A DNA stretch of 62,337 bases, the filler included, from Nitrospirae bacterium CG2_30_53_67 (GTDB taxonomy: Bacteria > CG2-30-53-67): the NCBI GenBank assembly GCA_001873285.1. It is 5 parts of 5 records of this genome, joined end to end, with 100 filler letters (N's around TTAATTAATTAA, not from the genome) between each part and the next. Parts side by side here need not be neighbours in the genome. Positions count along the whole stretch, not along the records: positions 1 to 4,545 come from MNYV01000173.1; positions 4,646 to 10,255 come from MNYV01000140.1; 3 more parts are not named here. One strand, 5' to 3'. Positions 3,001 to 6,000 of this stretch are shown here, piece by piece (position 1 is the stretch's first letter; each line of letters starts with the position of its first letter). Position numbers: made by a program.

Positions 3001-6000
3001 GTGTACCAGAGGGGTACGCGCTGAGTCGCGCTCGGAGATGAGACCGCCCTACGACCTGTCTGCCGCCTGTCTGCGTTGCGTACGCGACAGGCAGGCCCTC
3101 TACCGGTAAACCGAGTACAAGTCGGTACGTCACCCTATTTACGAACAGGACCACTTAGAGATGCGGAATAAGAAGGATGGCCGGAGAATCTTGGATGGAA
3201 AGAAGGGGCGCATCAGGCGAGGTTCATCATTTTTTTTACTGCAAGCCCGGCGATCATGGAAATTAAGAAGAAGAAATAAAGCCATCCCGGCTGCAGACCC
3301 AAGAAACTCTCCTGTTTCGGGTATTCGATATGGATCATCTGTATCGGAGAGTCAGAGGGAAGGAGGCCGGCATTCGAGGTCAAACGCGAGATCCATTCTT
3401 TTTCTGTCTTCATGTCCGGGTAGATCCTTTGGATCCGGCTTGAAATGACAGCGTTATGCATATATTGTTTTTCTCCCTGATGGAAAATGAGGTTGTAGAT
3501 GCCGGACGAGCCTGCATGGATCTGCCAGCTTACCCGCTTTTCCTCAGGAATACGCATAGAGGAGACATCCATGCTCAACCCCTGCGGGAGGATGAGTTCA
3601 ATCCGTGCGAGGCTGTTTTGATCCTGCGCTACAGCCGCAACAACAAAAGAATCCCCGGGACGGATGGGATAAAAGCTGTACCTCGCGTTCAAGTCAATCA
3701 CAATAAAGAGGATCGGGAGGATCAAGACCACCGCGGATTTAAACGTATATCGCAGATAGTTGAGATTTTCCTTGATAATCTCCCTCTGGATTGTGAACAT
3801 CTCCGCCATATCTTCTTTAAAAAGGCGGACCTCCAGGAAGTGGATTTTGATCTTGTCCCGGATTTCCTTTAATTTTTTCTGATCCGTGGTCCAACTGTAA
3901 AGAAAGACCATCACCACGCCTGTGACCACGGAGATCAGACTCAGCCCCGCATAGGGAGACATCTCGGCAAAGGGAGATAGCACAAAATCAAAAAACTTTG
4001 AAACCATATTGAACATCATCATAAGCGGCTACCGAAGTGAGATGCTTGCAAAACCCGATCCGTCAGGCACTAAGAGATATACCCTAATCCCTGCAGCCTC
4101 TTCTTCACCTCATCTTCTTCTTTCCCCCCTGAGGAGGGTGTTCCCTGGGCACGTTTCATTTCTTCTTCCATCAGGTCACTGACCCATTCTGAAAGGTCTG
4201 CATATCCCTTTTCTTCAGCAAACAGAGAAGCACGTTCAAAGAGATCTTTGTCGATGGGAATTTTTTTCTTAAACATGATCACACCTTTCCTAAGTGGTCC
4301 TGTTCGTAAATAGGGTAACGTACCGACTTGTACTCGGTTTACCGGTAGAGGGTCGTAGGGCGGTCTTATCAAGGCGCGCGACTGAGGCGTACCCTCTGGT
4401 ACGCCGCAAGGAGCGGAACGCAGATGAGGCCGCCCTACGACCCTCGAATGCGACCGTATTTACGAATAGGACCACTAAGTTCCGGCCTACTCCAATACAT
4501 CCTTCCCCGTCATGGCAGGCAAAGGAGCCATATGGAACTCATTCANNNNNNNNNNNNNNNNNNNNNNNNNNNNNNNNNNNNNNNNNNNNTTAATTAATTA
4601 ANNNNNNNNNNNNNNNNNNNNNNNNNNNNNNNNNNNNNNNNNNNNATTCATCCTGATCCGTGCGGCTGATCCCGAACTCCCGAGCCAGCACCTCGGCCGT
4701 CTGCCCCATGTTCAGCCCGCAGTTCGCGTCGGTGAGCCCCATGAGGAGGCCCACGACCGGTTTGAGATGAGCCGGTCGAATCCTCAGGAGCACGCCGAAA
4801 CGGTCGCTCCATCTCTTTGCCTTCTGAAACGCTTGAAGAATTTCCTGCAGATCCTTGGAAAAAAAGATGGAAATGTTGCTCATGGATTCCACCCCGCCGG
4901 CGATGATCACCTCGGCCTCATTTAGGAGGATCTGCCGGCAGGCGTTGACGATCGACTGCATGCCTGATGCACAGTTACGCTGAACCGTGTAGGCAGGAAC
5001 CTGTATGGGGATTCCCGCCTTGAGGGCGATCACCCTGGCAATATTGGTTGAGTCCGCAGGCTGCCCCACGTTCCCGATGATGACTTCATCCACCATCGAA
5101 GGGTCCATCTCCAGACGTTCCATGAGTTCACGGACTACAATCCGGCCAAGCTCGGAGGCGGAGAGATCATTAAAAAGGGTCCATGCCTTGATATAAGGAG
5201 TCCGGACCCCGTCCACAATCACAATCCTTTTTCCCATCATGGAACCTCCTAAAGGGGATAGGATTCATTTAAGTTAATTCGTTTTTTTGAGTATACACGA
5301 TACCGAGATCTGATGTCAAGAAAACCAATGATAATCCGTGTAGTTGTATGATATGCCTCAAGACTTTCATGAATAATGTTCTGCTTGACATTCCTGCTCA
5401 AGAATATATATTTGTGAATCCCAAGGTAATGACTCTCCACCCGCATAATGGGTGGTATCAGGAAGCCCTCCAGAGGGGGGCATTGACCCAAAACAAACTC
5501 AGTGGCCAGCCAAAACGCCATGCTGTACCGCAACAGAAATCGTAACCCGTTTGTCATTGTCCGGCTTGACCGGACAATCCAGTATGTTCTGGATTCCCCG
5601 ATCAAGTCGGGGAATGACGGTGTTTTTGATTCATCACGAAGTGTATATTTGCCGTCCCATCTGATGTGCTATAAACTTTTCCACTCTTACATAGGCTCTT
5701 CCTCCTGCTCCATTCAAGGCTTTCCCAGAGGAAGAGCCTATCTTATTTCTCCCCGGATCGGTAGAACCTCTCCGGGTCCACCACCAGTGGTACGTCACAA
5801 GGAGAGGAACGCAGATGAGACCGCCCTACGACCCTCTCGGTACGTCACCATATTTACGAACAGGACCACTAAGGAGAAAAATGCATTTAAAGCCGCCTCA
5901 AAAAACTATCATGCTCGTCAGCCTGATGCTTCTTCTGATCCTCTGCAAGGTTCCTTTTTCATCGGAATTCTCCTATGCGGAGGTTCTCCGGCTTGAGAAT

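Follow-up and report, generated by a model that had tools for sequence, protein, structure and literature searches.

In the literature available to us, the Oxa1 superfamily is split by domain of life: YidC is the form of bacteria and organelles, and DUF106 proteins are the form of archaea and the eukaryotic ER. The initial annotation of the locus studied here had stated that DUF106 is regarded as archaeal and eukaryotic, and accessible portions of the literature describe it in this way (including PMC5868721, PMC5898192 and 10.1101/2020.12.20.422553). According to the accessible text, the archaeal protein MJ0480/Ylp1 has a three-TM core that lacks the TM hairpin of bacterial proteins (PMC5868721; Lewis and Hegde preprint), binds ribosome-nascent chain complexes in vitro (PMC5868721), and is encoded near secY and ribosomal genes (PMC5898192). 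TMCO1, EMC3 and GET1 are subunits of multi-protein complexes, and their last core helix binds partner TM helices with its far side (10.1101/2020.12.20.422553, available text). Bacterial YidC has a five-TM core that includes the hairpin (Lewis and Hegde preprint, available text).

The window examined here is a 62,337-nt stretch of DNA from Nitrospirae bacterium CG2_30_53_67 (assembly GCA_001873285.1), and all coordinates are counted along it. It is not the single contig that it had been taken for, but five contigs separated by artificial linkers (N44-ttaattaattaa-N44). On the 4545-bp contig an ORF of 269 aa (3213..4022, minus strand) is present as annotated, and encodes a DUF106/Ylp1-type membrane protein of the Oxa1 superfamily.

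A bacterial family related to Ylp1, TMCO1 and EMC3

The 269-aa protein scores 21.1 bits against PF01956 (E 2.9e-4, residues 14-129), under the gathering cut-off of 27.1 bits, and has no NCBIfam row. When used as a single query against PDB sequences it matched MJ0480 (5C8J) at E 0.0011, with the next match at E 1. A 66-row family profile, searched against 177,635 PDB sequences, improved this to E 2.6e-8 (positions 5-120 aligned to 6-125 of MJ0480), together with another, weak stretch of alignment (244-273 to 169-198), and left the next PDB match at E 0.76, while a profile of the N-terminal core (122 residues, 35 rows) reached E 5.1e-10 in the same set. MJ0480 was the only one of these 177,635 sequences matched by the family profiles, and no YidC, TMCO1, EMC3 or GET1 chain was found by this sequence search at E ≤ 10. 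The only insertase family matched by members was PF01956, at E ≤ 0.01 in 6/66 (best 4.8e-8), and none of the 66 matched PF02096 at this threshold. Precomputed PF01956 matches were present for one of 47 members. With so few members recognised, the family is to be seen as a relative lying outside the present boundary of PF01956 rather than as a listed member of it.

These results support the window protein being a homologue of the DUF106 (Ylp1/TMCO1/EMC3) branch of the Oxa1 superfamily, and the assignment made in the initial annotation was reproduced by an independent profile, model and structure search. The canonical YidC said to coexist with it was also recovered, on another contig of the same genome (PF02096, E 8e-66), and a canonical YidC is carried by all five of the other cassette genomes checked.

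The family is large: at the 50% identity level it numbers 2399 representatives with E ≤ 1e-3, or 1620 if the limit is set to E ≤ 1e-10. In a sample of 401 genomes, all bacterial and one per species, the DUF106-like gene occurs in 36, and besides the window's own genome it was found in one of eight genomes of the same taxonomic family. An earlier estimate of at least seven bacterial phyla held as far as several phyla are concerned, but not for the number seven, as five phylum-level names were seen: Omnitrophota, Planctomycetota/Phycisphaerales, Acidobacteriota, Schekmanbacteria and Aminicenantota. Some members from bacterial metagenomes (3/13 and 9/47) already bear the automatic JGI label 'uncharacterized membrane protein (DUF106 family)'. 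No description of a bacterial DUF106 family, or of the PDE cassette described below, was found in the titles and accessible passages of the DUF106/Ylp1 literature.

Architecture and predicted topology

An AF2 model of the protein (pLDDT 94.1, pTM 0.84) has helices at residues 23-45, 48-67, 72-115 and 246-266, and agrees with the three-helix core, cytoplasmic coiled coil and Ig-like insertion between TM2 and TM3 that had been proposed. An amphipathic helix (residues 2-18) precedes TM1 in the model. TM1 (residues 23-45; 3888..3956, minus strand) was delimited from DSSP of the model, conservation and the alignment to MJ0480, and ends in a conserved D-Q motif, whose Q48 occurs in 90% or more of the rows. 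It is followed by a coiled-coil hairpin predicted to be cytoplasmic (residues 46-92; 3747..3887, minus strand), formed by the model helices 48-67 and 72-115, and by TM2 (residues 93-115; 3678..3746, minus strand), where the alignment to MJ0480 reaches residue 125. Residues 116-245 (3288..3677, minus strand) are modelled as beta strands (125-232) forming an Ig-like sandwich, without a TM hairpin of the bacterial type. TM3 (residues 246-266; 3225..3287, minus strand) coincides with the weak stretch aligned to MJ0480 169-198, and its residues W247 and F251 are shared by no fewer than 90% of rows. Polar residues at the predicted cytoplasmic ends of TM1 and TM2, picked out from sequence only, are S31, T45, T46, D47, Q48, N86, Y89 and R91.

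The model was compared with 48,161 chains using VIA-align. The best match was 7tut_8, which we take to be TMCO1, at Z 10.8 (rmsd 3.6, 135 aligned) and spanning model residues 17..269, a Z below ~13 being possible by chance for helical proteins. The next was YidC (3wo7_A, Z 8.6, 146 aligned), level with coiled-coil rows of unrelated proteins (8.6-8.3). In the available text of two papers that cite it, 7TUT is the multipass translocon entry, with chain letters absent. A second-look structure search returned only Ig-like matches, to residues 119-196 and with a maximum Z of 6.6 (InvD; filamin reached 6.2), and there was no Oxa1 chain in the Foldseek top 1000. The closest Foldseek match of the sandwich was the N-domain of cyclomaltodextrinase (3edd_A, E 1.8e-4), and S-layer protein SbsC and Ig domains were matched as well.

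The likeness to MJ0480/Ylp1 thus extends to an N-terminal helix, a TM1 with D-Q end, a coiled coil, TM2 and a last TM helix in the same order. The bacterial family differs in the ~130-residue sandwich placed between TM2 and TM3, in its occurrence in bacteria rather than archaea, and in that the window protein falls under the PF01956 gathering score. To our knowledge, TMCO1, EMC3 and GET1 have no beta-sandwich inserted between core helices. E. coli YidC carries a periplasmic beta-sandwich (P1), positioned before its core rather than inside it. With bacterial YidC, exemplified by B. halodurans YidC2 (3WO7), the protein shares the superfamily and, presumably, an overall groove-forming core, but its model has three TM helices and its sandwich occupies the position of the YidC TM hairpin (Lewis and Hegde preprint, available text). 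Insert-free relatives were sought with the 122-residue core profile, and only five proteins were found, all of them short fragments (115-137 aa).

Counted over 29 members, the TM1-TM2 loop has on average 8.5 K+R residues, compared with 1.8 for the C-tail of 8 residues and 1.2 for the N-terminal segment. An N-out/C-in topology is predicted from these counts, with the sandwich facing the periplasm. The membrane sides of all domains discussed here, including those of the enzymes below, rest on charge counts and simple regular-expression signal patterns.

Conserved gene neighbourhood with two NPP-like enzymes

The DUF106-like gene is the last of a cassette in which an optional PDE_S gene is followed by PDE_A, PDE_B and a small gene for a ribbon-helix-helix (RHH)-like protein of 61-68 aa. 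A same-strand PDE gene lies upstream of the DUF106-like gene by 450 bp or less in 31/39 other loci, and within ~1.1 kb in 36/39, and the small gene adjoins it in 37 of the 39, both by motif and by HMM. When the genes around 40 loci (these 39 and the window's own, extended as described below) were clustered all against all, no further recurring neighbours emerged, the next cluster being present in 5/40. In 2/39 loci there is no linkage between the gene and the PDE pair; at L055 and L063 no PDE gene is near the DUF106-like locus, and the pair is found elsewhere in the genome.

Co-occurrence in the 401 genomes is close to strict. Full-length PDE_A (model start at or before 15, at least 840 bits) was detected in 32 genomes, 31 of which also carry the DUF106-like gene. 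In the one genome that lacks it (G399), PDE_S, PDE_A and PDE_B are followed by the small gene, which stops 26 bases short of the end of its contig. Conversely, all 34 genomes with a DUF106-like match at E ≤ 1e-20 have a PDE match at E ≤ 1e-80. Two genomes (G261 and G314) encode large NPP-like proteins with related N-termini and have neither the DUF106-like nor the small gene in the stretch examined, and eight further, single NPP-like genes are likewise without them; an anchor of this kind is therefore not always dependent on a DUF106-like partner.

In the window's genome the cassette spans two contigs. Window positions 4218-4545, reverse complemented, are identical to the end of contig C81 (328 bases, exact overlap), and give the order MutS2, DnaG, RpoD, PDE_A, PDE_B, repeat, 68-aa gene and DUF106-like gene. 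Of PDE_B, the window contains the final 19 codons and the stop codon (4487..4545, minus strand), the remainder being on C81; the full gene (L083:7322-9280) encodes an NPP-like lipoprotein (PF01663, E 7.8e-34). A palindromic, MITE-like repeat of 191 bp (4290..4480), predicted to fold as one long hairpin (-118.6 kcal/mol), is inserted after PDE_B and before the small gene. It has 77 matching pieces on both strands of the genome, 39 of them nearly full length at 80-100% identity, and six long copies are in the window. The contig, repeat included (1-4545), matched no Rfam family at gathering score. The repeat is probably the cause of the assembly break at the end of the 4.5-kb contig, and its presence between PDE_B and the small gene means that co-transcription is not assured in this genome. 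A second, diverged copy (2925..3158, minus strand; 73.5% identity over 234 columns by blastn) is located just downstream of the DUF106-like gene and marks the end of the cassette. In a genome of the same genus, PDE_B ends 288 bp upstream of the DUF106-like gene, with the small gene between them. A search for PDE_S in the window's genome gave a best candidate of 137 bits, whereas true PDE_S proteins score 450-900, and the cassette here is therefore without PDE_S.

The possibility that the contig is archaeal and mis-binned was considered and rejected. Its unique flanks join it to a contig with dnaG and rpoD, and the same-genus copy has parAB, gidAB, one bactofilin and one PEP-CTERM gene as neighbours.

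PDE_A and PDE_B are members of the NPP/alkaline-phosphatase superfamily, with PF01663 scores of 108.1 and 118.2 bits (cut-off 23). A model of PDE_B (pLDDT 89.1) matched Xanthomonas NPP, ENPP1/3/6 and phosphonoacetate hydrolase (PhnA) in Foldseek at E 5e-11 to 1e-8 (entries including 7n1s, 6aek and 1ei6, E ~1e-10), and a PDE profile matched the same NPP/ENPP/PhnA entries in the PDB by sequence. Seven residues are invariant over 20 rows in each enzyme, D40/S79/D391/H395/D449/H450/H601 in PDE_B and D104/S143/D456/H460/D513/H514/H666 in PDE_A, and are candidates for the NPP metal and nucleophile sites. Compared with the NPP family, the cassette enzymes are ~650-740 aa long, have a ~190-residue beta-rich insertion within the catalytic domain and, in PDE_A, an invariant procoat-like N-terminus; they have no NCBIfam name. 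PDE_S is a soluble NPP-like protein.

The N-terminus of PDE_A consists of a signal-peptide-like segment with an A-x-A site, a Y-I/V-G-P-G-A-G tail, one TM helix and a K/R-rich stretch (5-10 K/R after the helix). The G-P-G-A-G motif is invariant (20/20), Ala is at -1 in 20/20, and small residues are at -3 and -1 in 18/20. This arrangement resembles that of M13 procoat and Pf3 coat, the classic Sec-independent clients of YidC. The single TM helix and the K/R-rich stretch predict a cytoplasmic catalytic domain for PDE_A. PDE_B has a twin-arginine-type pattern in 10/20 and a lipobox-type pattern in 10/20, from which a periplasmic location is predicted.

The small soluble protein (68 aa in the window; 4070..4276, minus strand), the immediate conserved neighbour of the DUF106-like gene, has a weak ribbon-helix-helix signal in its N-terminal part, an acidic linker and, at the C-terminus, a G-L-G-Y motif that does not vary. 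RHH_1 (PF01402) was matched at E ≤ 0.1 by 8/29 members (best 6.3e-5), the window copy not being among them. PSK_trans_fac was matched by 10/29 with weak E-values, and the N-terminus of NikR at E 7.4e-4 (E 0.013 in the PDB). A complex prediction for the DUF106-like and small proteins (29-row alignments of each), run without controls, scored 0.00 and weighs neither way.

Possible roles of the DUF106-like protein

Given the conservation of the NPP-like cassette, the DUF106-like protein is better read as a component with a dedicated role than as a second insertase for general use. On balance, we think it probable that this DUF106-type Oxa1 protein is dedicated to the PDE_A/PDE_B pair, as insertase, stable subunit, or both. 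It would most likely insert the procoat-like N-terminal hairpin of PDE_A and then retain it in or beside the hydrophilic groove, by analogy with EMC3, GET1 and TMCO1 and their partner helices. The proposed partner would differ from those of the eukaryotic proteins in being the enzyme's own anchor, and not an EMC6-, GET2- or OPTI-like protein. The Ig-like domain, on the periplasmic side, may contact PDE_B, so that PDE_A and PDE_B could be coupled across the inner membrane. Canonical YidC alone could also insert PDE_A. A stronger form of the dedicated role, which seems possible but rather unlikely, would place the Oxa1 core at the heart of a stable enzyme machine: its three helices would permanently grip the procoat-like anchor of the cytoplasmic PDE_A, the Ig-like domain would grip the paralogous lipoprotein PDE_B, and the groove would hand a lipid-linked phosphodiester between the two.

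A housekeeping role, as a second general insertion route like that of Firmicutes YidC2, would make the adjacency of the NPP genes meaningless. The fold and sequence relationship to the Oxa1 superfamily, the coexistence with YidC, and the binding of ribosome-nascent chain complexes by archaeal Ylp1 in vitro (PMC5868721, available text) would all fit such a role, but the gene is present in only 36/401 bacterial genomes, and in 1/8 of the window's own family besides the window's; the same neighbours are retained in distant lineages, PDE_A co-occurs in 31/32 genomes, and the gene is not beside ribosomal or sec genes as is that of the archaeal YidC (PMC5898192, available text). We regard a general insertase as quite improbable. 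The strict co-occurrence is accounted for equally well by a role as subunit of a lipid scramblase or flippase, in which the groove would move a lipid-linked phosphodiester or pyrophosphate, as substrate or product, between leaflets, with PDE_A and PDE_B acting one after the other on a single membrane-bound molecule. The two paralogous NPP-like domains predicted on opposite sides of the membrane, each with seven invariant candidate active-site residues, would be consistent with this, but lipid-synthesis or glycosyltransferase genes do not recur in the neighbourhood (40 loci), and the invariant N-terminus of PDE_A better fits a protein-protein or insertion relationship, making a scramblase a doubtful candidate.

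The small gene raises another alternative, a membrane-tethered regulatory pair in which the insertase likeness is an ancestral scaffold. The RHH-like protein would act as a transcription factor that the coiled coil keeps at the membrane until the Ig-like domain senses a signal; once released, it would control the PDE operon. Its gene adjoins the DUF106-like gene even at L063, where no PDE gene is nearby, its G-L-G-Y tail appears suited to docking, and the RHH_1, PSK_trans_fac and NikR matches point in the same direction. The RHH signal is however weak, and absent from the window copy, sensing by a single Ig-like domain is speculative, and the strict link to a PDE_A with an invariant N-terminal motif would be left unexplained; a regulatory pair is accordingly judged very unlikely.

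The locus provides what the field lacks, a small protein of the Oxa1 type whose obvious candidate client or partner is encoded by a neighbouring gene. With a candidate client adjacent, client recognition, holdase versus insertase activity and possible lipid scrambling become testable in a simple bacterium. The finding also defines an unnamed five-gene cassette with NPP-like enzymes predicted on both faces of the inner membrane, and so widely conserved an operon of a DUF106-like and two PDE genes points to an undescribed membrane machine. If the Oxa1 core does hold both enzymes together, the cassette would encode an envelope machine of a new kind. On this reading the DUF106 lineage would also extend beyond archaea and eukaryotes, either through very old ancestry or through an ancient transfer after which it spread among bacteria. 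The existence of a large bacterial DUF106-type family beside a normal YidC blurs the division of the superfamily by domain.

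Sequence relationships of the DUF106-like protein

The DUF106-like ORF (window 3213..4022, minus strand) encodes a 269 aa protein that has no match in NCBIfam. Its sole Pfam match is PF01956 (EMC3_TMCO1; E 2.9e-4, residues 14–129), where its 21.1 bits fall short of the 27.1-bit cut-off. When the single protein was compared with all PDB sequences, only MJ0480, the Ylp1 protein of Methanocaldococcus jannaschii (5C8J), was matched (E 0.0011, residues 3–119 to 5–125), and the alignment shows that a D-Q motif ending TM1 is common to both. A word-indexed search found 13 close relatives (56–100% identity), three of them labelled 'uncharacterized membrane protein (DUF106 family)' by JGI. 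The profile of these 13 relatives, searched against 1.84 billion cluster representatives, matched 2399 proteins at E ≤ 1e-3, 1620 at ≤ 1e-10 and 330 at ≤ 1e-30, and nearly all of the 150 representatives listed were about 270 aa long and matched from end to end.

A 66-row family alignment (A2) was assembled from the window protein, two of the close relatives and 63 of the 150 listed representatives, picked at roughly even steps with truncated ones left out; its rows are 23–64% identical to the query. The A2 profile matched 5C8J only among PDB sequences (E 2.6e-8, positions 5–120 to 6–125; runner-up E 0.76), with a weak second stretch on the last helix (244–273 to 169–198). A core profile restricted to the N-terminal 122 residues of 35 members (the window protein and those of the 39 extracted loci, 34 in all, with full-length matches) gave E 5.1e-10 for the same entry, the runner-up being at E 0.046. 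Scanned one by one, six of the 66 members matched PF01956 at E ≤ 0.01 (best 4.8e-8), and none matched PF02096, the bacterial YidC family. These results bear out the initial annotation in its assignment to the DUF106 branch: the window protein is a homologue of DUF106-type Oxa1 proteins.

Among the 47 proteins listed in an indexed search with A2, the only NCBI name was 'hypothetical protein', one had a precomputed PF01956 match, and nine carried the JGI DUF106 label, an automatic COG label showing that pipelines already detect the similarity.

A conserved cassette with two phosphodiesterase-like genes

The window joins five contigs of one MAG through artificial linkers (N44-ttaattaattaa-N44) at 4546–4645, 10256–10355, 30261–30360 and 35638–35737, so genes flanking any linker are not genomic neighbours. 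The DUF106-like gene is carried by a 4545 bp contig (C55) of a 2.37 Mb genome in 183 contigs (95% complete, 0.96% contaminated). A search of this genome found two adjacent large PF01663 genes at the end of contig C81, encoding the NPP-like proteins PDE_A (720 aa) and PDE_B (652 aa). C81 ends in 328 bases that match window 4218–4545 exactly in reverse complement. Within this overlap lie the 3′-terminal 59 bases of the PDE_B gene, a 210-base spacer that includes a 191 bp repeat, and the opening 59 bases of a small ORF (window 4276..4070, minus strand, 68 aa), so that each contig spans the repeat into unique sequence on both sides. The gene order is MutS2, DnaG primase, RpoD sigma-70, PDE_A, PDE_B, repeat, small gene, DUF106-like gene and a second repeat copy, followed by a 111-aa membrane protein, a multihaem cytochrome c and a cytochrome b561-like protein. 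The dnaG-rpoD pair beside the cassette settles the bacterial origin of the contig.

The repeat is palindromic, about 190 bp long and folds into a single long hairpin (−118.6 kcal/mol). Copies lie at window 4290–4480, 2925–3158, 8687–8853, 23134–23304, 45753–45945 and 52330–52523, with partial copies at 5788–5873 and 15519–15554. The genome has 39 near-full-length copies (80–100% identity), often near contig ends. No Rfam family was matched, and the repeat looks like a MITE/REP-type element that breaks up the assembly. The glycine-rich predicted membrane protein (window 2282–2617, minus strand, 111 aa) between the second repeat copy and the cytochrome operon has no Pfam match and is not kept beside the cassette in other loci. 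The operon itself (window 197–1950, minus strand) lies farther downstream on the contig that carries the cassette, and encodes a 321 aa multihaem cytochrome c, with MtrC/MtrF-like, cytochrome c7 and paired CXXCH matches, and a 263 aa cytochrome b561-like membrane protein (PF01292).

In a genome of the same genus, a 77%-identical homologue has the end of PDE_B 288 bp upstream, with the small gene between; PEP-CTERM protein, bactofilin, ParB, ParA, RsmG and MnmG genes lie downstream. More widely, flanks of about 6 kb per side of the matches were extracted and all ORFs scored with HMMs of our own for the DUF106-like protein and three PDE classes, the latter built from three loci. Of 39 loci in genomes other than the window's, 31 have a PDE_A- or PDE_B-class gene upstream on the same strand at no more than 450 bp, and 36 have one if the distance is extended to about 1.1 kb. 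Of the three others, L004 has only 165 bp of upstream sequence, while at L055 and L063 (genomes G058 and G160) the PDE pair is on another contig. Gaps of 200–460 bp are filled by a 61–68-aa ORF with an invariant C-terminal G-L-G-Y, which by motif and HMM lies next to the DUF106-like gene at 37 of the 39 loci; at L055 and L081 it was not found. A soluble class, PDE_S (~435 aa), precedes PDE_A or lies nearby in at least 13 of the 39 loci, a lower bound set by flank length; it is absent from the window's genome. When all genes of 40 loci (the 39 and the C81 stretch) were clustered, no further recurrent neighbour emerged, the next cluster occurring in five loci.

The association also held across genomes. 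Among 401 species-representative genomes related to the window's (all 'same domain', 365 of high quality), a DUF106-like match was found in 36, of which 35 are high-quality. The carriers are scattered over many families, but of the eight other genomes that share a family with the window's only one has the gene. A DUF106-like match at E ≤ 1e-20 was always accompanied by a PDE match at E ≤ 1e-80 (34 of 34 genomes). With a 20-row PDE_A alignment searched against the same 401 genomes (full-length meaning a model start ≤ 15 and ≥ 840 bits), full-length PDE_A including its N-terminus was found in 32, and 31 of these have the DUF106-like gene. In the remaining genome, G399, PDE_S, PDE_A and PDE_B are present together with the small gene, which ends 26 bases from a contig edge. 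In ten control genomes with a large NPP-like gene and no DUF106-like match, neither the DUF106-like nor the small gene was found within about 2.5–5 kb per side. The DUF106-like gene is thus tightly linked, across lineages, with the PDE_A/PDE_B pair and the small protein.

Two of the ten controls (G261 and G314) have variant-type PDE_A-like N-termini, in large NPP-like proteins encoded at L085 (G261:C85, 4196–6319) and L088 (G314:C18, 40–2235). One lacks a signal-peptide-like segment, and the other has Y-I-D-P-G for Y-I-G-P-G; these enzymes may represent a state before or after gain or loss of the membrane partner. At locus L094 (G107:C1, 7801–9296), the DUF106-like gene of the cassette has diverged strongly (26 bits with our HMM) and the small RHH-like gene is found downstream on the opposite strand, indicating that the cassette tolerates rearrangement.

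Predicted architecture of the cassette proteins

AlphaFold2 modelling with A2 (pLDDT 94.1, pTM 0.84) gave helices at residues 2–18, 23–45, 48–67, 72–115 and 246–266. Beta strands lie between 125 and 232, and Foldseek and a second structure search matched this inserted domain only, to Ig-like sandwiches (cyclomaltodextrinase N-domain, E 1.8e-4; S-layer SbsC; InvD, Z 6.6; filamin, Z 6.2), in agreement with the Ig-like insertion between TM2 and TM3 described previously. In a Foldseek-independent comparison with 48,161 PDB representatives, chain 8 of 7TUT ranked first (Z 10.8, rmsd 3.6, 135 residues over model 17..269) and Bacillus halodurans YidC (3wo7_A) second (Z 8.6, rmsd 6.1), on a par with coiled-coil proteins that are unrelated (Z 8.6–8.3); values below about 13 can reflect a common helical-protein arrangement. 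We take chain 8 to be TMCO1; the title of 7TUT describes a ribosome-bound multipass translocon, and the relevant passages of two citing papers give no chain letters. Taken alone, this structural match would carry moderate weight, which is raised by the agreement of the sequence evidence.

In 29 members, the TM1–TM2 loop averages 8.5 K+R, the N-terminal segment 1.2 and the short C-tail 1.8. Together with the N-out/C-in topology given for the superfamily in a passage of PMC5868721, this distribution puts the Ig-like domain, as a prediction, in the periplasm.

PDE_A and PDE_B pass PF01663 with 108 and 118 bits (cut-off 23), the match being split in two around an insertion; no NCBIfam model names either. 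The PDE_B model (pLDDT 89.1) has an additional beta-rich region at about residues 115–305 and matched Xanthomonas NPP, ENPP1/3/6 and phosphonoacetate hydrolase by Foldseek (E 5e-11 to 1e-8), NPP-family entries that a sequence profile also matched. Seven candidate active-site residues, presumably the bimetal ligands and nucleophile, are invariant in both proteins.

All 20 PDE_A rows share one N-terminal layout: a basic segment, then a hydrophobic one, Ala at −1 (with small-x-small at −3/−1 in 18 of the 20), an invariant Y-I/V-G-P-G-A-G-F, a hydrophobic helix of about 25 residues and 5–10 K/R ahead of the catalytic domain. Such an order suggests that a cleavable signal peptide is followed by an outer tail of seven residues, a single TM helix and an enzyme domain in the cytoplasm. 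The layout is that of M13 procoat, the textbook Sec-independent client of YidC. Among 20 PDE_B N-termini, a twin-arginine-type pattern occurs in ten and a lipobox-type pattern in ten; the six with neither look by eye like ordinary signal peptides, and PDE_B is predicted to be exported. No hydrophobic segment is present in the small protein, whose RHH signals are weak.

Proposed role and place in the superfamily

In the most likely reading, the DUF106-like protein would insert the PDE_A hairpin, made up of signal peptide and anchor, and would probably remain bound to the anchor. By analogy, EMC3 and GET1 and, from co-evolution, archaeal YidC use the outer side of their final core helix, its far face, to bind partner helices, according to 10.1101/2020.12.20.422553. 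The Ig-like domain, predicted to be periplasmic, would then contact PDE_B.

In a variant of this reading, the groove would move a lipid-linked substrate between PDE_A and PDE_B; lipid scrambling by insertases is reported in the abstract of 10.1101/2023.09.01.555937. A canonical YidC, as first annotated, is indeed encoded in the same genome (PF02096, E 8e-66, 544-aa frame, contig C131) and in all five further family-bearing genomes examined. A general housekeeping insertase is a less likely role than insertion of PDE_A, and so is a membrane-tethered regulator.

Titled loci come from MAGs of Omnitrophota, Phycisphaerales, Acidobacteriota, Schekmanbacteria and an unclassified 'bacterium', and the nearest ESM-Atlas clusters are 95–100% Bacteria (commonest phyla Aminicenantota, Acidobacteriota and Planctomycetota). 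The family is not limited to fragmentary bins: one carrier, G092, is a 4.7 Mb genome in a single contig, and other contigs that bear the gene measure 939 kb and 612 kb. In the relevant passages, the DUF106 proteins are termed 'archaeal and eukaryotic membrane proteins' (Anghel et al. 2017), COG1422/pfam01956 is identified with the YidC of archaea (Makarova et al. 2015), and PMC8887752 and PMC8662606 are in line with an archaeal/eukaryotic DUF106. No description of a bacterial DUF106 family or of the NPP-like cassette was found in the portions of the literature covered, supplements aside. A superfamily branch that was already known is met here in a domain of life where it was not expected; both its inserted domain and its conserved genetic partnership are new.
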